A stretch of DNA of 63,904 nt, the filler included, from Collodictyon triciliatum (taxonomy: Eukaryota), in NCBI GenBank assembly GCA_043381765.1. It is 8 parts of 8 records of this genome, joined end to end, with 100 filler letters (N's around TTAATTAATTAA, not from the genome) between each part and the next. Parts side by side here need not be neighbours in the genome. Positions count along the whole stretch, not along the records: positions 10,420 to 20,722 come from JBHJMP010002724.1; 7 more parts are not named here. One strand, 5' to 3'. A program made the position numbers and the translations under genes. Positions 11,264-35,419 of this stretch are shown piece after piece. How positions within the stretch are numbered: position 1 is the stretch's first letter; each line of letters begins with the position of its first letter. The notes under the pieces were generated by a model that saw only the letters and a list, made by a program, of their open reading frames with translations, was not told the origin of the DNA and did no database searches.

Positions 11264-14200
11264 GATCTATCGATCTATCTATCTGTGCATATTTGAAATA
11301 TTATGCAATTTGAAGTATCAACAATTTCGTTTTCTTTGTACACGCTGTCGCCCATTATACCATATTATTCCAAAAGTGAATTCCTAAAGCTCTGTGTCAT
11401 ACTCCCTTATCGGCTAAAACGAACAAAAATGAATCAATATATTGTTTGTTCCATATATGTCAAATTGTTAATACTAGATGCATCCTTGTACACAACTTCT
11501 TTATAATATATTTCTCGCTTGGCCTCCAAGTATGTCTATGTCATTAAGACAAGCTGTTACAACATTCACAACCAGGCGAGAAAAGTCATGGAGAACCGTT
11601 TCCAGCCAACCGAGTCTGTCTCGTCCTTCCTCAGCAACGCCGACACGCTCGAGGACACCCACACCAGCATCGTCCAGAAAACCAAAGATTCTTCTGTATA
11701 GAAACGGCCAAAGATTGGACAAGCAAGGAGTGACTTATGTGGTCGCATCAAGTATTGCACAGGTTTGATTTTTCTACTTTTACTGGCGTACGATTTTATT
11801 ATCTCAGGTTTTTTTTAATTGAACCTTCACAAATCCTTGGTGCTATTTTCCTCCGTTCTTTTGCTTGCTCAGATTTACCTCTTACCACAATCAGGGTGTC
11901 GTGTTACTTAAATATTCCTTCCCTACACTTGTATCTTGAGGTTATTCGTTTCATGGTTTGATGACCATGCTTTTCTTTTAGATGATGGGCGATTGCACAA
12001 CAATCCTCTCGCTTCCTTTTTCTGCAAAATCACTCTATTTGGCAGATGGAACGCCTGTGAATCACGCAAGTCAACTTCATGAAGGAACTAAGGTTATTGT
12101 GAGTGCTGGAGAACGATTCAAATACAGGCTATATCTCAATAAAGGTAGGCCTTTCATCGTATATTTATCCTTCCTATTTAATATTTACCTGCAAGAGACA
12201 CTTATGGAAAAATATCATAAATATATGACATAGAAAATATGATAATGATACTCAATTTTTAACCCAATTCATCATTATTTTCCGTCTTGTGGCTGTGTTT
12301 TTCTCTCACTCATTTTGAATCGATGACAGATTTTCTAAGATCTATTTTAATACAGAACAATATGAAAGTCTTCCAAGGTCATGTAAATACTGTGGACAAT
12401 TTTTCATCCCCCGAGAAAACACACCCATATCTTGCTTAAAACATTCACTCGGATTCATCAACGGCCGATGGATTTGCTGCGGTCAAACAGAAAAGGGCAT
12501 CCACGGCTGCTCGAAAGGATTTCACGCAGACCCACGGGTTTTTCCTTATATCTAAAAATCCATTTCTGCAACATTTCCATATATACTGGATACGTATGCA
12601 TATTCGCAGAATGACGATTTGAAATAGTGGTATCCAGTCACAGTGTCTACTTTGAAGTGTGATATATTTTAAAATGTTACTATGGAAACGAATGGGAACC
12701 GCAATATATATATGATTGGAAAGATGAATCAGTATTTGTCAATTAAATGAATTTGTGTATAGTATGACGACGATTTGAATCTCCTCCCTCGAAAAAATGC
12801 TATTTGCGTATATTTGAACGGAACGCCGATTGGCTCGCCCCACTGCGCCGTTGTAGATATTCCTACAAAGATGGAAGTGGTATGAATATCCTAATTTTCT
12901 TGCTTTCTACAAAACCATGCACCTCAAAAAAAAAATTTGCTGCATTTTTTTTTTTTAAAAAAAAAAGGAAAATCATGTTCTACATTCCACATTGAATGAT
13001 ATTTATGCAAAGTAAAACATTTCTCAAAAAACCAGAGTATAATAATCTCCCATTATATTACAATTCGATACTTGTGCGCTGCTTTATTTTCTTTTACAAA
13101 ACGATGCGTCTCTCATGGATAATCTAATATGCTATTATAGCTATTTGAAAACTGTGGACGAAAGCTTGGACTAATACGAAACATTAAGAAGCTATTCAAT
13201 GAGAAAGGTAAATCAAAAAATCAAAATACATTGCTAAGGCCCCACTGCTGCTCTCAAGCTCACGATTGTGTTCTGAAACAAAAGGTCAGGAAATCACCTC
13301 AATGGCGGACATTAGACATGATATGAATATAATTGCATCAACCGGAGACCATTTTAAATGGGGCGTTTACCTGACGAAAGGTAACCACTATATGAAAATT
13401 TTGTTTTGCTATAAAAAAGTTTTTAAAAAGTACCCCAATCAGTTCGGACAATCAAATATTGAAAAGAAATAAACAAAGAAAATCGATGTATGCAGTAATT
13501 CAAAGGCGCTATTCATATTTTTTTTATGTTTTCAATTGTAGACGAACTGAGGCGCATCCCTCGAAAATGCGTGCGTTGTAAATCAGAATACACGGCTGAG
13601 AAGAATGGGCCTGATGCGTGCTTGTTCCATCCGCTTCCATATAATCCTGCCAGTGGTGTATCCTAAATAGTTTATTCTTCTGGAATTATTGTAATGATAT
13701 TATTTGTCGTTGTAGTGACAACATGATGCATGCAATACCTCCCTTCTTCTTTTTTTTTAATTCTATATATGAAAGACAAACTAATTAGACGCATTTGGTA
13801 TGGATAATATTCGTGATCAAAACCAAAGTCGCTGCTCATATATTTCTTTAACGCAGTATAACAGATTATATCCTTTTTTTTCGAAAAAAAATTGGAGAAA
13901 TTGCACAACCCATCAACATAATCAGGCACAACATTACAGTTTCGGTCACGCTGAAAGCATGTGACTATGAGTTATTTAAATCATAATTTTTATTGTATAC
14001 ATGTATTTCAATCAGATAACGCTACCATTTTCATGCAAGATTTGTGTCAGAGAAAGGCAATCCAATCGTTGCCTCCTCTTCCAACTCTCTTTTCTATTCT
14101 ATTTTTTTTTTGTATCCAACATTAATTCCTTAACCATGGCGCACTGGTTGTGTTGTCATTCGAAAGCAAGAGACAGCAAATCACTTCTTGGTTGTAGAGC

Positions 14201-14267
14201 GGCGCCGCACTTTGACCCGCGGTTTGGACCAGGAGCGAGTATCAGCACAATTGCACCATCAGAATAA
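10476..14267 (+). CDS. Protein with two tandem units of doublecortin (DCX)-like domain + CHORD-like Cys/His zinc finger; start uncertain
   Basis: Unit 1: ILLYRNG...KSLYLADG...IVSAGERFK then CKYC-x13-CLKH...WICC...GC...H. Unit 2: IFERNAD...KKLFNEKG...IASTGDHFK then CVRC-x13-CLFH...WLCC...GC...H. Ends in TAA at 14265-14267. Confidence 0.8.
11002..11283. repeat. Intronic (TTTTTATTTGG)n 11-mer array followed by (CTAT)n
   Basis: Visible tandem repeats separated by a short N gap. Confidence 0.9.
13658..13864 (+). other. Candidate U12-type GT-AG intron
   Basis: 5' site GTATCCTA; branch-like TTCTTTAAC at 13844-13852, then 12 nt ending in the terminal AG. Confidence 0.7.
13868..14144 (+). other. U12-type AT-AC intron
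   Basis: 5' site ATATCCTTTT; branch point TTCCTTAAC at 14126-14134; terminal AC 10 nt later; splicing restores the TGG-TTG-TGT-TGT frame. Confidence 0.85.
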
Positions 14268-14627
14268 TCTCTTCATCTCGCCCTTTGGGAATGTATATAG
14301 ACCCTGTCTATCCCACAAATATCGACTTTCTACTTCCATTGGTATAGCAAGCTTAAATGTTCTTTTATCAACAAGAAAGAAAAGATAAGCTGTCCAACCT
14401 TTGAAAGAAACATCTTTGGTTGATTTGTACAACTTACACTTTGCAACTTGCCATCGATGCACTCATCAACACCACCATTTCTTTTAACAGTTTTCTTGAG
14501 ATGGAGTTATATTTGTCTATGTTAATAAAATCCGTATCCTTCTTTGATTTATTGTGCTTTGAGAGAAGCTTAAGCTTTGAAGGGTGAGTTATATGTACTC
14601 TTGTTTGCTTCGAACGGGAGGCATGGC

Positions 14628-17600
14628 TCAGCCAAACGAATGAACAATAATTGCCACAGCTTCTCCGGACATATTTGAGATGCATGCAAGCCCGTATCGA
14701 CCTTTGTTTTTGCGGAGCACATTCAACAAGGAGATGATAATACGTGCTCCGGAGGCTCCTGTGCATGTTTTTGGGATGATATATGAGTGCCAAAGTATGT
14801 GGTGGGTATAGGAGAGTGGATAAAATGTGCGATGCATGTCGTTTTTTTTTTAAAATAAATAAATAATTTAATCAATCAAATTGCGGACACGTTGATATTT
14901 TTATTTTATTTTCCACTATGGAGGACATTTTCGTGTCTTTGAGTGTCACTTACCCATAGGATGACCGAGAGATAATGTTCCCCCATGTAGATTCACTACC
15001 GATGGGTCCAGTTTCAGCTCCTTATTTTCATTATTATTTTTTACGTAGTGTGATTTTATTTTATTTTAAGAGAAATATTCATGCAACTTTCCATAGGCTC
15101 CAAGGCAACATGATAAAAGAAAATATTATTAGAACATATTCGCACCCGCATAACGTCGATGGAAAGTGCGCTGAAAGTATCGGGAATCTCGTAATAATCG
15201 ATGTATTCTCGGTGTATGAATGATTTTTCAAAGACCTTTTGATATATGTTTTTTTGTTTTGAATGGGAATAAAGTCGTCATAAAGAAAAATGAGAAATTC
15301 TCACAAATACAAATATCGCTAGAGTCAGATTATAAAGCATATAGTGAAAAGGAATGTAAAGAGGAGAGGAAAAGCCATTTGACAACAAAGAAATCCTACT
15401 TTATTGATAGCCATCACCGGAGCCGCAAGAACATGGTGAGGACCCTTCATAATACGAGCATGTGCTGCGGTACGGATAAATAAAACAAATGTTTTTCTTT
15501 TCAAAAAAAAAAAGGCGGAAATACTAATAAGACAAATATGTAGTTCGGATGAATTTTCATGCAAGCATCCAAGTGTGTATAAAAGACGAAAATGGGCATA
15601 TTTTCCACAAAAAAAAGGCAGTAATTTATAATAAAGAAACATACCAATAATGCGTCCAATTGCTTTTAACTTGTGTTGCTTCACTACATCGCCACTTGCC
15701 AGAACCTGATTTATTATAATTCTATTATTATTTTTACAAATTTGGTTACTTAATCGCATTGGGACTAACATGACTTGGAACCTCTTTTCTTCCAGACAAA
15801 ATAAATGGAATAAAATGAAATTATGCAATCTAACGAAGAAGGAACAAACAAGTGCCGCTGCTCCATCACTGAGCTTACATGAGTTTGCTGATGTAATGCG
15901 ACCTGCAATGGAAGTAACACGAGCCGACATAAAATCAATTTTAGAACAATTTCGTCGAATTGAAGATACATATTCCATCAATTTTATCTGAAGTTTTTTT
16001 TTTGTAATTCACTGAACCAGTGCTTTAATTTTGTGTATTAAAGGATGCAAAAAAATCATTGTGATGTTTGTTACCATTTGCATGAAAAAAAGGTTTAGCT
16101 GCACGAATTTTGTCAGGGTCGAATTTGTTTATGTGTTCATCTTCAGAAAAGACTGCTTCCATTCCTCTGATGAGTTTGTGTAACGGGTATTAAAAATGAT
16201 TTTCTTCAGCGTTAATCCATATAATATAATATATTTTTGTAATGCTACAAACTCTTGGTTACGGAAGGTTACAGGTACAATTTCGTCTTTGAATTTGCCT
16301 TCCTAAGTTATCATCATAGCAATAAAAAAAAATACCGAAATGAGTAATGCTATTGGGTGCAGATATTTAAACTTGATAATTCAGAAAATATAAAACAGAA
16401 TATAGTAAAAAGTAATTATATCTGAAAAAATAAAGACAATTCATCTTATATAAGGGTGAAATATACAGCATGTGCTGCCGCTGCACGTTTATGTGAAATA
16501 ATTGTGAAATTGTCCTGCATCTCGCGTCTGAATGAGAAACAACATAATGTTGAAATATTTCAAATTTACTTTTTTTTTCTCTTTTTATACCGGGCTTGTA
16601 TTGTAATTTGTATTATTAATTCATTTAAGGCGAAAAAAATGGAACCCCATAGAATAAATTGAAAATACGCACGTTATATTCCGACTCTTTGCATAGTCTT
16701 CAATATGTTGTCCCTAGTTTTCAATATTTTAGTAGAGCCGGATTTCATATAGGTTTGAAAAGAAGATTCGATAAATATATACTAACAAGGTCAAAGTTGT
16801 TATGGAAATCCCAGAAACCATCTTTGCAGTGAGTATCTATGTCTCCAACGGGATGTGTCTGAGTTTTCAAATTTTTATTTATGGTTCACATTATTCTTAT
16901 GTAATGATACAGGAAGGAAAAACATGGGGGTGATCTTAATTTTGTATGAAAAAATCTTTGAAAAAAGGATTCAATACATGAAGAAAAATGCAGAATTTGA
17001 TATTGATATCATATATTAAAGGCAATTTACTCGCTGAAGATAAGCAGATGACTTTGATATGCTCTCAAAGCCCCCGACAACACAAAAGCCATCGCTAGTC
17101 TAAAATAAAGCTATTAGATTTGTTTGGCAAATCGCGAGCTATGAATGCTTTCGATATTACTAAATCAAGAAAGATGAAGTATTATGCGGTAAATTAGCAT
17201 GTGTGATTATCACGGTTTCAAGTTTAATATATTAAGGAAAATTTAATATCAATTTATACACATTTCTTGTGGTAGGTCCTTAACATAAAAAATCAATGCA
17301 CACGATCTAATAGATACCAAAGTTCCATATTCCACATCAGCAGCTCCAAAATCAACTGCTACAGCTCCAGATACACATAGAGAGTCATTATCGCCTCGTG
17401 AAACGCTTGTCGGGATACCTTTATTACATTATTCCTGAGGTACTGACAAATCGAAAAATATACATTACGTCCGAAAAGTAGAGTCTGCTTTTCTCTCAAG
17501 AGCAGAAATAACCCAAACAAAATAGAAAAGAAAAAAATATTGTTCTTCACTTTTAGGGGCGTGCATGTGTATTTTCAGAATTAACTAGAAGTATTTTCCC

Positions 17601-18671
17601 AATATCATTGGTAGAAACCAATTTCGATTTACTATTTAACAATAAGCTTTCTAAAAGAGAAAAAGAAACGAACCTCCCAGGGTCGCTGCCTGACGAACTA
17701 GATTATCACGATAGCCACCGCTGACAACGTTTCCCAGATATACTGACTGAACAGATTTTGCATCGACACCTAGAAGTTGGAGGATTGCAAACAAAGAAAC
17801 AGCATCAGAATGAAAGATGCACATATCAACCCAAATATTACGGAAACTGGAATTACAGCCTATTTTATTTTTAATTTACATTATTTTATTTTATTTTATT
17901 TTATTTTATTTTATTTATTTTTAATTTTTAATTTTTAATTTTTAATTTTTAATTTTTAATTTTTAATTTTTAATTTTTAATTTTTAATTTTTAATTTTTA
18001 ATTTTTAATTTTTAATTTTTACTTTTTACTTTTTACTTCATTTTTTTACTTTATTTTTTTACTTTATTTTTTTACTTTATTTTTTTACTTTATTTTTTGC
18101 TTTATTTTTTGCTTTATTTTTTACTTTATTTTTTACTTTTTACTTTTTTATTTTTGCATGGTGTGATTGGATGGAAGAGAAAAAGAGAGATACAAGAGGA
18201 TGAACAAGAAAATGGAGGGGAAGATGGCGCACAAGTACCTGCCCGAGATAGAGATGCCTTCACAATAGTTCCTCCGAGCCTTGAAGTTGAGAGAGAGGAA
18301 AGTGCTCCGTTGAAAGACCCAATAGGTGTTCGTACTGCACTGAGAATGAAAGCTTCCTACATACCGATAGAAATCAAACCAAACTGCAAATATTGTATCA
18401 AAAGGCGAGATAATTATGGTCTTACATTCGCATGAGTCAAAAAATATTAAAGAAAATGTGAATAAAAATAAAGGAAACAAAAAGACAAACAGAACGGGCC
18501 AGAAACACAAAGAACATCAAGGTAATGCGTTTGATTTGTTTTTGTGAGGAAAATGAACATACAAGATATTAAAAAAAAGTAAAAAAGAAAGGGATGAGCC
18601 ACCTTCCTAGTCGAATAGCGCGCGATCTGCAGTGTTGAGCTTTGACGAATCCTGGGTAGCATTTCTTCCAT
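14628..18671 (-). CDS. Divergent mitochondrial thiolase (acetyl-CoA acetyltransferase-like), 14 exons
   Basis: Arg/Ser-rich presequence MLPRIRQSSTLQIARYSTRK; motifs AVRTPIGSFNG, YLGNVVSGG, LCVSG, GGFESIS, FKDEIVPV, LSDGAAAL, VNLHGGTLSLGHPMGASGARI. All introns GT-AG. Confidence 0.9.
17880..18152. repeat. Intronic (TTTTA)n/(TTTTAA)n and related T-rich arrays
   Basis: Tandem repeats in thiolase intron 2. Confidence 0.9.
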
Positions 18672-19510: not shown

Positions 19511-20608
19511 CTAGGTGCGCTTGGCCTCCTGAATAAACTCGAGAATCACTCGAGCCTGAACCTTCTTAAGGTTAAACGGTGCGGATGTCAGGTCTTTTTC
19601 TTCGAGTTCAACAAAGTCTTCTCCCGTGTAGCCTTTCACGCCAACGGTTGCCACAAAGTCGGGATGTGCATTCTTCCCTCCCAAGTACTTGATAAGCTCT
19701 GCAGTGGTCATTTGGCCAACAGGCTTGGACACTTTCACAGTCTGCTGCAGGGGATTCCTAATCACCTCGTTCAGCTCAGCCTCAACTTGGGCAGCGTTGA
19801 TGCGGCTTTCAAAATCTCTTTCCCAGCATTTGTGAATCAATGCCACAAGATTGGATGGAGACGACGGCGGGAGAGGAAGCAAAGCTCCACTCAATACCCT
19901 CTGTCCGATTTCTGCATCCTTCAAATCCTGATACGGATACTCACCGGTCAGCATGGACCATATGACCACTCCATACGAGTATATATCGCTGGGAAGTCCC
20001 ATACTTTTCCCAATCTCAAACGCCTCTGGAGGCGACCAACTAATGGAGCCCTTGAAGCTGCTGACGGAGTTGACAGAGACACCACTTTTTGAGAGGCCAA
20101 AGTCAGTCAACTTTGCAACTCCATTGACAAGCAAGACATTCTGGGTCTTCAAGTCGCGGTGTTGAATGGCTGGTGTGCGTGTGTGCAGATACTTGAGGCC
20201 TTGGATGATATGTAAGCCATACTTCAAGGATGTTTCGTTTCCAAGAGCCTTGTGTCTCTTGACGAGCGAGTATAGGTCTCCTCCGTCCGCATATTCCATG
20301 ACAAAGAGAAGGTCTTTGCTACGGAAGCCATAGTCGTAGAGAGCAAGAATATTTGGATGCTGCAGCCCAAGCATCATATTACCTTCTTTCTCGGGGTCAG
20401 AGCCGTCAGCAGCAGAGCGCAGCTCCGCACTTGCAACGACCTTCACTGCATAGAGACCTGCCCTGAGCTGCACTTTAAAGACCAGTCCGAATCCACCAGC
20501 GCCAAGGAAGTTTTCTTTCTTTTCGAAGTCGACAACGAGGATGTCTGCATATTTACTGGTTGCAAGACGACTAGCAGTGACGGTAGATGTCTGAGTCTTG
20601 GAAACCAC
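19511..20608 (-). CDS. TKL-like protein kinase with C-terminal SAM-like domain; terminal exon, 5' part lost at contig end
   Basis: LGAGGFG, AVK, HRDLKTQN, DFG, WSPPE, SDIYSYG; TGCAG acceptor just upstream; tail ...MTTAELIKYL...YTGEDFVELEEKDL. Confidence 0.9.
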   Translation of the reverse strand: MVSKTQTSTVTASRLATSKYADILVVDFEKKENFLGAGGFGLVFKVQLRAGLYAVKVVASAELRSAADGSDPEKEGNMMLGLQHPNILALYDYGFRSKDLLFVMEYADGGDLYSLVKRHKALGNETSLKYGLHIIQGLKYLHTRTPAIQHRDLKTQNVLLVNGVAKLTDFGLSKSGVSVNSVSSFKGSISWSPPEAFEIGKSMGLPSDIYSYGVVIWSMLTGEYPYQDLKDAEIGQRVLSGALLPLPPSSPSNLVALIHKCWERDFESRINAAQVEAELNEVIRNPLQQTVKVSKPVGQMTTAELIKYLGGKNAHPDFVATVGVKGYTGEDFVELEEKDLTSAPFNLKKVQARVILEFIQEAKRT

Positions 20609-20822
20609 TGCAGATAATTATTTAATTATTGTTACTATCCCTAAGAGAGGTTAATGGAGGAACGATTATTCACTTAGAAATCATGTTTGTATCTTTTTTT
20701 TTTTTTGTTAAAAAGAAAAAGANNNNNNNNNNNNNNNNNNNNNNNNNNNNNNNNNNNNNNNNNNNNTTAATTAATTAANNNNNNNNNNNNNNNNNNNNNN
20801 NNNNNNNNNNNNNNNNNNNNNN

Positions 20823-21537
20823 GACTTTAGTCTCTCGTTTTCAGATTGAAGCGCTTCATGCGATTGTTTGAGTTGTTGGACTTCGTTTGTGAGTTTCTCA
20901 ACGTTCTCTGTGTCCTCTTGATTTGAATACTTTAGTCTATCGTTTTCAGATTGAAGTGCTTCGTGTGATTGTTTGAGTTGCTGGACTTCGTTTGTGAGTT
21001 TCTCGATGCTCTCTGTGTCCTCTTGATTTGTAGACTTTAGTCTCTCGTTTTCGGATTGAAGCGCTTCGTGTGACTGCTTGAGTTGTTGGACTTCGTTTGT
21101 GAGTTTCTCGATGCTCTCATTATCTTCTTGATTTGAAGACTTTAGTCTCTCGTTTTCAGATTGAAGCGCTTCATGCGATTGTTTGAGTTGTTGGACTTCG
21201 TTTGTGAGTTTCTCAACGTTCTCTGTGTCCTCTTGATTTGAAGACTTTAGTCTATCGTTTTCAGATTGAAGCGCTTCGTGTGACTGCTTGAGTTGTTGGA
21301 CTTCGTTTGTGAGTTTCTCGACGTTCTCTGTGTCTTCTTGATTTGAATACTTTAGTCTTTCGTTTTCGGATTGAAGCGCTTCGTGTGACTGCTTGAGTTG
21401 CTGGACTTCGTTTGTGAGTTTCTCGATGCTCTCATTATCTTCTTGATTTGAATACTTTAGTCTATCGTTTTCGGATTGAAGCGCTTCATGTGATTGCTTG
21501 AGTTGCTGGACTTCGTTTGTGAGTTTCTTGATGTTTT
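20823..21537 (-). repeat. 105-bp coding tandem repeat, about 7 copies
   Basis: Repeating unit EKLTNEVQQLKQSHEALQSEN(E/D)RLK(S/Y)SNQED(TENV/NESI). Confidence 0.95.
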
Positions 21538-24500
21538 CCTTATTCCTCATATCATCGGAATATATATTTAATTTCTCTCTGATCTGAATAGTTTCATCGT
21601 TATTCTGGACTAAAAAACGAGGACTCATTTGTTTTTCAGGATTTTGCGTGCTGTCAAAAAAATATATTGGCGACGTGTAATGTACCTGATTTCTATGCTC
21701 GGTGAAGTGTAAGTTACAATCCTTATTCCCTTCAGGCAAATGAATCTCACTCACAGTGAATGAATTGAATGAGCTAGAAGAATATTTAGTATGAAGGTTT
21801 TCCATCAATGATTCTGTTTCATCTCCGATGGCCCTCCCTCGACCAATTGAAGAATCAGAAAAAGTACACGATAAATTTTGAGGAGATATTAAAATTGATG
21901 AGCCAGTATCTTGACTATGTTTTGAATATGTTGTAGCTATATCTTGAGGTGATAATATGATGGAGCTTAGAGCCTGCATTATTTTTCTATGTTCCATGGC
22001 AATATGCAGGATTGTTGAATGCAATTGATTATTTTCTACCTTGAGAAAGCGTACGATGTTAGAGATTTTAATAATCTCCTCAAGAAACTTTGCATGTTCC
22101 AGGGTTATTTTATTTCCAACAGACTCTGTCCCATAAAGATTCTCAATTTCTCGTTGTTCCAAGCTTTTTTCTTCTGATGTTGTAGACACAGTCTGAGGAT
22201 GACAAGTTTTTTGTGGAATTAGGGATGAACTAGGTTTCCATGATCTACTCATGGGCCTAATTGTGTCTGCTCCTTCATCTGGTTCATCAAGAACGACTTC
22301 CACTGGAATAAGTGATATATCTTTGGAATGGATAATATTACCTAGCCTGGGCGCAACAATTTCATTAGCTTGTTGGTCAGGAATGACTACTGGGTGTTTT
22401 AGTGATGATAATTTATCTGCTTTACTCTGGGATGTAAATAATTCTTGATTCTCTTCATAAAAGTCTTTCATAATGTTCCTTGCCAGTACTAAGCGTTCAT
22501 GAGAATTTTTGAGATTTGTTTGGTTTTGTTTAGCAATACCCTCATCGCCCTCGAAAGATGTATGAAAAGCGAGTCCCAGGTGAATATCATCGATTAAATC
22601 CACAATCGCATCAATTTTGGACTTGAGAGATGCGAGCGAGATCTTATTTCCGTTACCTTGTGAGAGAGGAGATTCACGGGGATATATTTCGGATATGCCT
22701 TGTCGAATCAAAGATGATTTCTCTTCGCAACACGATTTCCACTCGAGAACGCCGCGGAAGTCTTTAAAATACTGAAGAGTATTCTGAGAAAAAGTAAAGC
22801 GTTGTGATATTTCAGACATCAGTAGCTCAAGTGTGACTCCCAAATTGTCTAGGGGACACCCTTCTTGTCCGATGTCATGTAAGATTGACTCTAAGGCTTG
22901 AATTTCCTGCATCGCCTGCTGGCACTTTATTCTGTTGCGTTTGTTTGCATCAATTTCTTCCTCCAAAAAATCAATAAATGATTCTAAGAGATTTTCGGAA
23001 CATGAGTCGTTAGAATCTCGCGGCTTTTCGAAATGAGCTCTCTGTAACAAAAGGAAAAGAAAAAATACGAAAAAGATGAGTCAGGTAGGTACATTAGCTT
23101 GATTAGAATTAAGTAGTTGATGGATAAATATTTCATCGACGAAATATCACTCACATTTTGGCATGTTGCAATATGGTTCAAATCTGATGTTCCTATAATC
23201 CGAGCATTATGAAAAGGCATATATCTCTGGAGGATGATGAAACAGATTATTGAATATTCCTTGTAAAATTACCTTGCCGCTTATGGCTTGAATATTCATG
23301 ATAATTCCGGTCGTCTTCATTTTGCGTTTCCATTGGATTAATGCTATGAATTTCCAAGGGCTTTTGTGCGGGTAATAAAAAAGCTCTTGATTTTGATGTT
23401 GATATTGAGCGGATAGAGAAGCTAGAATCCAGTCGCGCGGTAGCTTTATAGTTCAATATTTTGAATTAGTAAAGTATGGAATAGCAACGCTTTACTGCAA
23501 ATAGTACCTTCATCTTCCTGAATAGGATTTTCCACATCACAGAATACCTGAGCACTTTCGTCTATTTTGTCGGTCCTAAAATCCAAATTAAACAGTATAT
23601 TAGATAAAATTAATATATATATATGTCAAATTGATTTGGTGCAAACCCTATAGATGACAAGACACATTTGTTAACAGAACGTGACAAAGGACCTTTTATT
23701 ATGTTTTTCATTTTAAAGGGCAAGGCCAATATGTATATGCAAACAAATATTGGATTAAAAAATTGATTATCTTCAAAATGGCGTTTTACAGCTTGGAAAG
23801 GTAGGACGATAAGAAAATTTACAAATTTTTTGAAAAATATATATATAAAAGACCTGGAAGCTTTCGCTCTTGTCTGTTATTTCCAAAATTAAATTCTTGC
23901 AAGGCTTGAATCTCACTAAACAATCTTTCCTTTTCGGGTTGTAATGGGTCTAGTTGGTATTTCATAGCATAAAATTCAGAATGAAGTCTCTCAGATTCAA
24001 GTCTTAAATTCTGAACACTGTCATTCAATTCGCAATTTTCTGTAGTTAGTATTTTAATCCTTGCAGAATATTCTCCATTCAATTCTGCAGTTTTGATTAT
24101 TTCACTTTGATATCTTTTGTATGATTCCTTAATGGAGGCGAGTTCCATCGTCACTTCATCCAATGATTGTGCTGTTTGTTTGAACTCAGCTTTTAAGCTA
24201 TTTTTTTCATTTTCTAGGGTCTCTTTTTCAGATGCTATTCTTGAAAATAAAATGCTAAGTTCCTTCATGTCCCTTTCCTTTTCAGCCAAGTCTTTTTGTA
24301 GGGAGGATATATGGAGGTCCAACTTTTTATGCCTTTCCTTTATCATGGATGTCTCTTTTCTCAACTCGGTATTTTCTCTGATGAGTTCGATATTTTTCTG
24401 AATTTCGATATTTGTACTCTGTTTTGATTCAAAACTACTCTCCTTCATCTGCTTCGTAATTTTAAGCAATTCTTCATTTTTTCGTTTTGATTCATGAAGA

Positions 24501-32126: not shown

Positions 32127-32199
32127 TGCCGAGACTCGGGATCGAACCAAGGACATCAAGATCTTCAGTCTTACGCTCTTCCAACTGAGCTATTTCGGC
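32127..32199 (-). tRNA. tRNA-Phe(GAA)
   Basis: GCCGAAATAGCTCAGTTGGAAGAGCGTAAGACTGAAGATCTTGATGTCCTTGGTTCGATCCCGAGTCTCGGCA folds as a cloverleaf (one acceptor-stem mismatch); T5 terminator downstream. Confidence 0.93.
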
Positions 32200-32974: not shown

Positions 32975-33045
32975 TGTCCGTACCGGGAATCGAACCCGGG
33001 TCGCAAGAATGGGAATCTTGCATGATGCCACTACACTACACGGAC
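32975..33045 (-). tRNA. tRNA-Gly(CCC)
   Basis: GTCCGTGTAGTGTAGTGGCATCATGCAAGATTCCCATTCTTGCGACCCGGGTTCGATTCCCGGTACGGACA folds as a cloverleaf; T5 terminator downstream. Confidence 0.93.
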
Positions 33046-33593: not shown

Positions 33594-35419
33594 TTATCGT
33601 TGTCTAAATCCCAGCATTATTTTGTAAATATATATGAGTATAATTCTCAGGGTTCTGTGGCTTACAATTTTGTTATGTGCGCTTTGATACTCCAGAGCAT
33701 AAGAGTAAGATAAAAAAAATAGAAATGATATAAACTATCGTATTAAGCAAACTTTGCCCATCCAACTTCCAAAATCAAGTGGTCATATCCGTAGCCGTTC
33801 AATGACATGGCCTTTTCAGCCTCATCTCTGTGAATAAAATGAACAAAAGCTACACGGCGGTTTGCATATTGATTCTATAAATTATTTATTGAGAGAAAAA
33901 TTAGTCACCTCGCTGCTGACATTCAACAAATAACCCGGTATATCGAAATGCTGTGAGGAAGAAAAGGGCTCTTACCACGTAGACCTTGGTCATCTGTCCA
34001 AAGCGAGAGAATAACTCGCGGACATCAGAGTCTCTGGCATCGGGGCTAAGGTTGGAGACACGGAGTACGTGTGTATCGCTTGCCATAGAATCTCCCGACT
34101 TCCCAGACTCCATTTGGTTGCGGATGGATGGAGGAATATATTTGCCGGGCTTTGATGTGGCAATATCGGCGGCTGCAGCGGCAGAGGCCAAAGGATTTCC
34201 GACGGCCTCGACTCTGTCAGCGAAGGGACATTTGTTGGTAAAGTGGAGCCCAACAGCACCACAAATACGACAGGTAACCGATATAATCTCGGGAGTTGGG
34301 AGGGGAACAGAATCGACCTGGGAGAGGTACTTATAAGTGTTTTTTCGCTTGTACAAGAAAGACGCGTTATTGCAAAGTCATGCAATTAATTCATTCAAAC
34401 AGAAATGAAATAGAGAATCAAATGTAGAAAAATGGCTGCATGTTTGGAGGGGAGGGGATGGGAGGGAAAGGGAATGGAAAGGGAAAGAACCTTGACAACC
34501 GGTCTGATGTCCAGGGTAATTTCATCACCAATATAGCTCGTTGTACTTTCTGTTGCTGGGTTGTTTTTGGCAGAAAGGCCGAACTTCGCCCATTTCTACG
34601 AGTGTTATGTTTTGTTTTGTTTTGTTTTGTTTTGTTTTGTTTTGTTTTGTTTTGTTTTGTTTTGTTTTGTTTTGTTTTGTTTTGTTTTGTTTTGTTTTGT
34701 TTTGTTTTGTTTTGCTTTGTTTTGCTTTGTTTTGCTTTGTTTTGCTTTGTTTTGGATATTAAGAATACGCGGAGACATCAATTAAATTGCTCCATTACAT
34801 TCTTTCTCAAATGGAAGTTAAGAAGGAAAAATATGCTTTTAGGGCATCTGCTTGGGATAAAATAAATATAAAAATAAATTAATTAATTAATACAGTATCA
34901 ATGTAGTTTATTAGAAAACAAATAGGTACCTTTCTCTCCGCAACACCAGGCAATACCTTGGACTTTTTTGTCACCACATGAAACCGGCGTGTTATCTAAA
35001 ACCATCGATTCATCTGAGCAATAGCATGTGGTATGACTCAAAAGATGGAAGGGGAAACGAAAGTGAAAAAATCAAGAAATATATTGTGACGGTCAGGAGA
35101 CGGGGCTTGGATCACACCTTCACAACTTTGCCGTCTTCTTGCTTTTCGAAATGAACATAGGACTTGATTCCTTGAGCATCAGGTCCTTCCACATAGTCTG
35201 GAGGCAATATGGTGGGAAAATAATAATAAAACTCGCACTTCATTTGCATTGTCACAAGAGAAAGCAATAAATTATATTGCTGTAAAGTATTCGGATAGAA
35301 GCAAACTAATTGTCAAAGAGATCAAGCACAGGGAGGGGGATACAAAGACCTTGGTAAGTAGGTGTTTCGGGTGACTCTGCTTCGTCCCCCCAGTTTCTGG
35401 CTTTGGGTGCTTCGGTCAT
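33594..35419 (-). CDS. EIF3G: Translation initiation factor 3 subunit G, 7 exons
   Basis: NWGDE, RKKWAKFG, zinc knuckle CRIC...HFTNKCPF, GKYIPPSIR, RRM LRVSNLS...NGYGYDHLILEVGWAK. Confidence 0.93.
34608..34753. repeat. (TTTTG)n in an eIF3g intron
   Basis: Pentanucleotide run. Confidence 0.95.

Follow-up and report, generated by a model that had tools for sequence, protein, structure and literature searches.

In a stretch of 63,904 nucleotides (nt) from the Collodictyon triciliatum assembly GCA_043381765.1, referred to here as the window, a plus-strand gene is predicted to encode two repeats of a unit that combines a doublecortin-like domain with a BTK-motif/CHORD-like zinc finger. We find that the second zinc finger of this gene very likely contains a real and unusual micro-exon, the single codon ATT (Ile) at positions 13865-13867. 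It is quite probable that this codon forms a complete exon between two introns with minor-type (U12-type) signals, the first of which has GT-AG and the second AT-AC termini, and that removal of both introns produces the peptide S-G-I-W-L-C-C. Evidence bearing on this reading includes the arrangement of splice signals and reading frame, a partly spliced RNA contig, and an alignment with proteins of Diphylleia rotans.

Direct reading of positions 12400-15400 recovered, in place, every motif that an initial annotation of the region had named. The upstream exon ends in AGT GGT, with its last base at 13657. Intron 1 (13658-13864, plus strand, 207 nt, GT-AG) begins with the donor GTATCCTA at 13658-13665, which agrees with GTATCCTT at 7 of 8 positions and has A at +8. 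Its branch-site-like motif, TTCTTTAAC at 13844-13852, matches TTCCTT[A/G]AC at 8 of 9 positions and is located 12 nt before the 3' end, counted to the end of the AG at 13863-64. The ATT triplet follows directly. Intron 2 (13868-14144, plus strand, 277 nt, AT-AC) has the donor ATATCCTTTT at 13868-13877, which agrees with ATATCCTT at all 8 of 8 positions. Near its 3' end is a full match to TTCCTT[A/G]AC, TTCCTTAAC at 14126-14134, from which 10 nt lead to the end of the terminal AC at 14143-44. The final exon (14145-14267, plus strand) starts with TGG TTG TGT TGT and is open right after the AC for 40 codons plus TAA; it encodes W-L-C-C...G-C...H and would complete zinc finger 2. With ATT included, the model is a single open frame of 288 codons starting at 11982. 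Two further statements of the initial annotation were borne out, namely that no AG occurs shortly before the final exon (the last one starts at 14055, and the AG-free stretch is 88 nt long) and that the nearer AG at 13855-56 is unsuitable (its use would create an 11-nt exon with a TAA inside). The micro-exon cannot be extended upstream, because a TAA is present at 13859-61 in the ATT frame.

To examine splicing in RNA, three runs of one study (X1, X2 and X3), none of them annotated as RNA, were compared with positions 11500-17800. X1 and X3 were read as complementary DNA because their contigs are spliced and because X1 has an adaptor-like 5' end and X3 a poly-T end. Contig record 1 of X1 (1112 nt, depth 6.34) begins with 22 letters that match nothing in the compared region, and which we take to be the SMART template-switch oligonucleotide. 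The remainder consists of the following pieces: 12108-12142, 12354-12878, 13140-13203, 13281-13378, 13540-13657, the eleven letters ATTATATCCTT, and 13874-14111. Five introns of this gene are spliced out in the contig, 13658-13864 among them. The GT-AG intron had been predicted to be excised at this donor and acceptor, and the contig indeed joins 13657 to 13865. The position of this junction is fixed, since the flanking bases differ and no sliding is possible. After the junction the contig reads ATT ATATCC..., so that ATT comes directly after the Gly codon. The acceptor used in the RNA is the AG 12 nt past the branch motif, and the AG 3 nt past the motif is skipped.

Downstream of ATT, at least 244 nt of the AT-AC intron (from 13868 to at least 14111) are present in the same contig, which ends in a T-run at 14102-14111. 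The junction AGTGGT-ATT-TGGTTG, which had been named as the product to look for, is therefore present in its AGTGGT-ATT half, and the ATT|TGG half is found in no contig. Retention of 14050-14144 had been set down beforehand as evidence against the micro-exon; the stretch kept in the contig, 13868-14111, overlaps that interval and equally fits a partly spliced intermediate. Such intermediates had also been proposed as informative about splicing order, and one is found here, with intron 1 removed and intron 2 kept. The contig is not a fully processed mRNA, because it also keeps 12538-12762, a second apparent intron of the gene. No contig of X1, X2 or X3 covers 14112-14453, a gap in coverage that says nothing either way, and the second junction (ATT|TGG) is neither seen nor ruled out by the contigs. 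In exons the X1 contig differs from the window at 3 positions, all 3 of them third codon positions and 2 of them synonymous, with no differences in the piece 13540-13657. In the kept stretch 13874-14111 there are 6 base differences and the T-run is 2 letters longer. Small as these numbers are, the differences fit coding exons and non-coding introns.

The closest relatives of the encoded protein come from D. rotans. When the exon for zinc finger 1 was searched against 1.84 billion representative proteins, 14 matches were obtained at E<=1e-3, and the 2 at E<=1e-10 were both Trinity open reading frames of D. rotans from EukProt; close homologues among these representatives come from only two D. 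rotans transcriptome genes. A search with the D. rotans protein P0001 found 3 proteins among 2111 candidates, and the isoform P0016 was added from a cluster look-up. The D. rotans proteins with DCX and BTK motif are EukProt EP00002 P041155, P041153 and P002778, and P0015 (Trinity DN9940 and DN1179). P0016 (408 residues) and P0015 (390 residues) share the same four-domain order, with two BTK stretches and DCX in each. The window model is identical to P0016 at 125 of 286 aligned positions and to P0015 at 130 of 283 (44-46%), and the alignment of all three is gap-free from zinc finger 1 through WLCC. Between the conserved Gly and W-L-C-C there is a single residue, Y in P0016 (G-Y-WLCC) and F in P0015 (G-F-WLCC). 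The window has one residue (I) at this position only if ATT is included. The final exon aligns with the C-termini of both P0016 and P0015 (WLCC, GC and APH, and with P0015 also DPRF). From the frame and this alignment, we infer that intron 2 is removed.

Two D. rotans isoforms depart from the common frame at positions of window introns. P0001, an isoform of the gene of P0016, loses frame straight after the conserved Gly and reads V-S..., which is what a kept intron with GTN TCN as its first letters would produce there. P0002 likewise loses frame at the position of the window intron 12880-13140. The D. rotans proteins, all of them transcript-derived, resemble the window gene in their domain order, in the one residue between G and WLCC, and in having isoforms whose frame is lost where the window has the introns starting at 13658 and 12880. 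Other searches were negative: as a protein query, the final exon gave no candidates among proteins of 71-2000 residues, and the exon for the first half of zinc finger 2 extended by one codon gave none either; a metagenome scan with the alignment A1 gave 109 pattern matches, 0 of them confirmed; and the first 24 nt of the final exon, sought as an exact string, had 0 matches.

We compared the two introns with 18 others from the window: 13 from a minus-strand thiolase gene (12 read as CT..AC joints and one as GT...AG) and five from the same gene, of which four are contig-confirmed and one, 12538-12762, comes from the alignment. An RTATCC donor is present in both introns in question and in 0 of the 18 others, and the same is true of a T[CT][CT]TT[AG]A[CT] motif whose last base is 8-14 nt away from the 3' end. 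Among the 18, one carries TTTTTAAT at 22 nt. In all, 2 of the 20 introns examined look minor-type. The portion of PMC3584512 available to us gives 11-13 nt as the optimal distance from a minor-type branch site to the 3' end, and the observed spacings of 12 and 10 nt agree with this optimum, as does the finding that splicing in RNA takes place at the AG 12 nt beyond the motif of intron 1. From these motifs, we infer that both introns depend on the minor spliceosome.

The chance expectation of combined signals was estimated from 500 block shuffles of the window, counting both strands of the 63.9 kb. For the full AT-AC signature (ATATCCTT, 40-1500 nt, TCCTTAAC, 8-13 nt, AC), there is one occurrence where 0.024 were expected, and at least one was found in 10 of the 500 shuffles. 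The abutting arrangement, consisting of a branch-site-like motif, 8-14 nt, AG, NNN and RTATCCT, is likewise present a single time, with an expectation of 0.002, and 1 of 500 shuffles had one. A looser GT-AG minor-type pattern is found 3 times against 1.67, which is not significant. Taken singly, TCCTTAAC is not enriched, with 5 occurrences against 2.07 expected, a count reached by 7 of 100 shuffles. Further RTATCCT sites (673, 32510, 54017 and others) were dismissed, as they have no convincing branch site and 3' end. At 54017-54056, TTTCTTAAAC comes 14 nt after GTATCCTTCC, and an AG is found about 16 nt further on; with donor and branch motif only about 40 nt apart, this minor-type-looking pair is probably too short for an intron.

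We also looked for kinship between the two introns and for structure in the RNA around the micro-exon. Global alignment of the intron pair scored -6.5 against a shuffle mean of -5.5 (standard deviation 5.3), and blastn matches between them span just 7-14 nt at E >= 0.87, so an origin of the pair by duplication was rejected. The local RNA fold around the micro-exon (13825-13905) has a z score of -0.21, with 81 of 200 shuffles folding equally well.

Several observations weigh against the micro-exon with two minor-type introns: (i) The sole RNA contig over the site keeps intron 2, and no molecule with ATT|TGG was seen. (ii) The RNA evidence consists of one contig from one run at low depth (6.34). 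(iii) When intron 2 is kept, the frame reaches a stop 18 codons past ATT. (iv) Intron 1 is off consensus twice, with A at donor position +8 and TTCTTTAAC instead of TTCCTTAAC as the branch motif. (v) Intron 1 ends in GT-AG, and other donors here include GTATCT and GTAACC. (vi) RTATCCTT is not enriched in the window, with 5 occurrences against 4.64 expected. (vii) Pyrimidines make up 0.59 of the last 32 nt ahead of the 3' dinucleotide in both introns and 0.50-0.72 in the gene's five others, and this measure sets neither intron apart. (viii) No minor-spliceosome small nuclear RNA was detected in the window at Rfam gathering scores, where only 2 tRNAs matched.

The alternative that survives best, which we nevertheless regard as unlikely, is a hybrid arrangement in which intron 2 is a true minor-type AT-AC intron and the major spliceosome takes out intron 1, whose minor-like appearance would be due to accident or descent. 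Such an origin would sit well with the GT-AG termini of intron 1, with its TTTAAC, which also fits a generic major-type branch consensus, with the loose major-type donors in the window (GTATCT, GTAACC, GTATGA and GTATAT), and with a loose GT-AG minor-type pattern that is not below chance (3 against 1.67 expected). Against it stand a donor that agrees with GTATCCTT at 7 of 8 positions and a branch motif that agrees at 8 of 9, neither feature being seen in any of the 18 other introns. The RNA, moreover, uses the AG 12 nt from that motif and passes over the one at 3 nt, and the abutting arrangement with an ATATCC donor is expected only 0.002 times.

Whether intron 2 is removed at all is a separate matter. 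If it never is, the gene would end soon after ATT with a truncated zinc finger 2, and 14145-14267 would be a decaying former exon. The sole contig, which keeps 13868-14111, fits this alternative, and 14145-14400 is uncovered in X1, X2 and X3. The sequence downstream argues otherwise: intron 2 has a perfect donor and branch site at textbook spacing, followed by 40 codons that are open in exactly the frame set by ATT and that can be aligned with the C-terminus of each D. rotans protein, the zinc ligands CC, C and H being shared. Minor-type introns are also known to be removed slowly and to be over-represented among unspliced introns (PMC3584512, in the part available), and the same contig also keeps 12538-12762, a real intron by the D. 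rotans alignment. We consider permanent retention very improbable. Finally, mostly skipping ATT by removing 13658-14144 in a single GT...AC step, which would yield S-G-W-L-C-C and make the ATT-containing RNA a by-product, would preserve the frame and use outer sites that both have minor-type signals, but is extremely unlikely given that the 13657|13865 junction is present in RNA, that GT-AC combinations are disfavoured according to the accessible part of PMC3584512, and that G and W are separated by one residue in each of the D. rotans paralogues.

For the preferred arrangement, a one-codon exon between two minor-type introns, the distances involved constrain how splicing could proceed. The branch site of intron 1 is 16 nt from the donor of intron 2, and the branch site, the AG and the downstream donor all fall within 33 nt. 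Because two active spliceosomes would hardly fit there at once, the introns are probably removed one after the other. In the first step, intron 1 would be removed with ATT and everything downstream serving as the 3' exon. Ligation would place ATT at the end of a 5' exon of ordinary size (119 nt), and the AT-AC intron would then be cut out to give S-G-I-W-L-C-C. In either order, each step would meet an exon of normal size on one side. A single contig, with a depth of about 6, shows that intron 1 can be removed first, and this order may be the general one. In animals, minor-type introns are slow to be removed and over-represented as unspliced, as described in the section of PMC3584512 available to us, and slow removal of this kind would account for the form in which intron 2 is kept. 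More speculatively, and by analogy with the USSE, U11 bound at the AT-AC donor might promote use of the upstream 3' site.

A stronger form of this proposal, which we hold to be doubtful, is that the 3-nt exon acts as a conserved and obligatorily ordered minor-spliceosome relay. By analogy with the USSE, the downstream U11 would help to define the upstream 3' site, intron 1 would be removed first, and the slow AT-AC step would leave detained transcripts that tune the output of the two-finger protein. If true, such a relay would be the first documented minor-spliceosome splicing in a lineage for which the CRuMs flagellate Diphylleia is, as judged by this gene, the nearest sequenced relative, and it would have the shortest known distance from a minor-type branch site to the next minor-type donor.

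The model of the remainder of the gene, all on the plus strand, is based on stop-to-stop frames, Pfam matches and RNA contigs. The gene extends upstream of the modelled frame, with contig pieces at 11576-11760 and 11980-12103. Of the first doublecortin-like domain, the second half is encoded by the exon at 11982-12144 (Pfam DCX at 23.7 bits, above its cut-off of 22; contig joint 12142->12354, cut +2), which is collinear with D. rotans P0016 and P0015. Zinc finger 1 is encoded by the exon at 12356-12537 (Pfam BTK motif with E 1.8e-08 and 34.6 bits, the cut-off being 24; within the X1 piece 12354-12878), which is unbroken and includes G-R-W-I-C-C. The next feature is the major-type-looking intron at 12538-12762 (225 nt, GTTTTT...AG), which is kept in the X1 contig. 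Its donor, GTTTTT, is weak; the X1 copy has two 2-nt deletions and one base change; and unspliced it would bring the frame to a stop at 12553-55. Once it is taken out, zinc finger 1 and the second doublecortin domain are joined with no gap, as in D. rotans (...DP-x-x-DDD-L-N...), and this alignment shows it to be, as far as can be judged from sequence, a genuine intron.

Three exons, at 12763-12879, 13141-13207 and 13285-13380, encode the second doublecortin-like domain, as indicated by X1 pieces and joints, sequence, and the D. rotans alignment. They are separated by GT-AG introns at 12880-13140 and 13208-13284, both of which correspond to X1 joints. Another GT-AG intron, at 13381-13541, precedes the exon for the first half of zinc finger 2 (13542-13657; C-x2-C...C-x2-H...A-S-G), which corresponds to the X1 piece 13540-13657 and has a weak CHORD match (E 0.054). 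Taken separately, the halves of zinc finger 2 are below the Pfam cut-offs, with 14.5 bits for CHORD in the first half and 13.3 bits (E 0.08) for BTK in the final exon. In this finger, the two abutting introns come after the His ligand and before the Cys-Cys ligands.

The neighbouring thiolase gene, which supplied most of the comparison introns, is on the minus strand at 14542-17771. It has a Thiolase_C match in its last exon (E 2.7e-07) and at least 13 GT-AG introns of 73-255 nt in the X3 contig, which begins with poly-T at 14542, the poly(A) site of the gene. A copy of GTATCCTT at 14534, just past that site, is not an intron donor. An odd joint, 15465->15647 ('TG..CA' plus one letter), was resolved as an ordinary GT...AG minus-strand intron with a nearby sequence difference. 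X1 and X3 are labelled as different organisms (A and C) within the same study; the contigs of both are at least 99% identical to the window and have the joint 17416->17672 in common, and the run labels may not give the source of their transcripts.

Elsewhere in the window, long single exons on the minus strand encode a protein kinase (19511-20617; Pkinase, E 2.7e-49), an eIF3g-like RRM protein (33901-34377) and an F-box/LRR protein (38585-40189). A tandem array at 20823-21533, with 6.8 copies of a 105-nt unit and 91% matches, is located inside a minus-strand open frame at 20771-23080; it encodes an E/Q/L-rich coiled-coil-like repeat and runs into a gap of N. Two tRNA genes on the minus strand (32127-32199 and 32975-33045; 59-60 bits) are the sole Rfam matches in the window. 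The window contains 1690 N across several gaps.

Minor introns have rigid, extended signals that are read by a preformed U11/U12 particle, and they are normally located among ordinary exons and major-type introns. A one-codon exon between two of them would be a natural experiment on the packing limit of minor-type recognition and on splicing order, as well as on the effect, favourable or obstructive, that U11 binding downstream has on use of the minor-type 3' site before it. There is also a practical consequence, in that gene finders that bar AT-AC ends or 3-nt exons would truncate zinc finger 2. The nearest homologues, from D. rotans at 44-46% identity, lend indirect support to a protist source. 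If the organism is related to Diphylleia, the evidence for minor splicing would extend to a poorly sampled deep branch of eukaryotes. We found no paper in the open-access and bioRxiv literature in which Diphylleia and U12 occur together, and no description of a micro-exon flanked by two minor introns in open-access or bioRxiv titles or abstracts.

The window introns are like canonical U12-type introns of animals and plants in their [A/G]TATCCTT donors, TTCCTT[A/G]AC branch sites and short branch-to-3' distances, and in that they are often unspliced. These two motifs are given here as quoted in the available text of 10.1101/2020.10.12.336362. The usual case is a single minor intron per gene, among major-type introns and ordinary exons, and about 50 human genes have two (PMC3584512, in the part available). 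In the window gene, unlike canonical U12 genes, two minor introns of different subtypes abut, 3 nt apart. Another comparison is with Physarum polycephalum, also a protist with minor-type introns in non-conserved genes. There, according to the part available of the work of Larue, Elias and Roy (10.1101/2020.10.12.336362), minor introns number 20,899 of about 175,000 (about 12%), often with T at donor position +6, and their branch motif is TTTGA, placed 10-12 nt before the 3' end. With so many, some minor introns in Physarum must be neighbours; the words microexon, short exon and adjacent are absent from the main text of that article in the version available. A Physarum-like system was rejected for the window, where these introns have classic signals and no TTTGA-type signal and where 2 of 20 introns are minor-like.

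An exon too short for exon definition has its flanking introns removed stepwise, the tiny exon being first joined into a larger one. The window gene shares this need for stepwise removal with micro-exons of the major spliceosome and with recursive splicing through zero-length exons. Those known cases involve major-type introns, whereas the micro-exon described here has minor-type signals on both flanks, one of them AT-AC. The USSE (U11 snRNP-binding splicing enhancer) of SNRNP48 and RNPC3 offers a parallel for the proposed role of U11: as described in the available part of PMC8329584, U11 binds a minor-type donor sequence and, by an exon-definition-like contact, activates the 3' splice site just upstream of it. 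In the USSE, the activated 3' site is major-type, the distance is longer and conserved, and the donor sequence is itself unspliced, whereas in the window only 3 nt separate the AT-AC donor from a minor-type 3' site, and the donor presumably takes part in splicing. Each element of the arrangement (both minor subtypes, micro-exons, stepwise splicing and retention) is known from other systems, and it is their combination in a single gene that is unusual.

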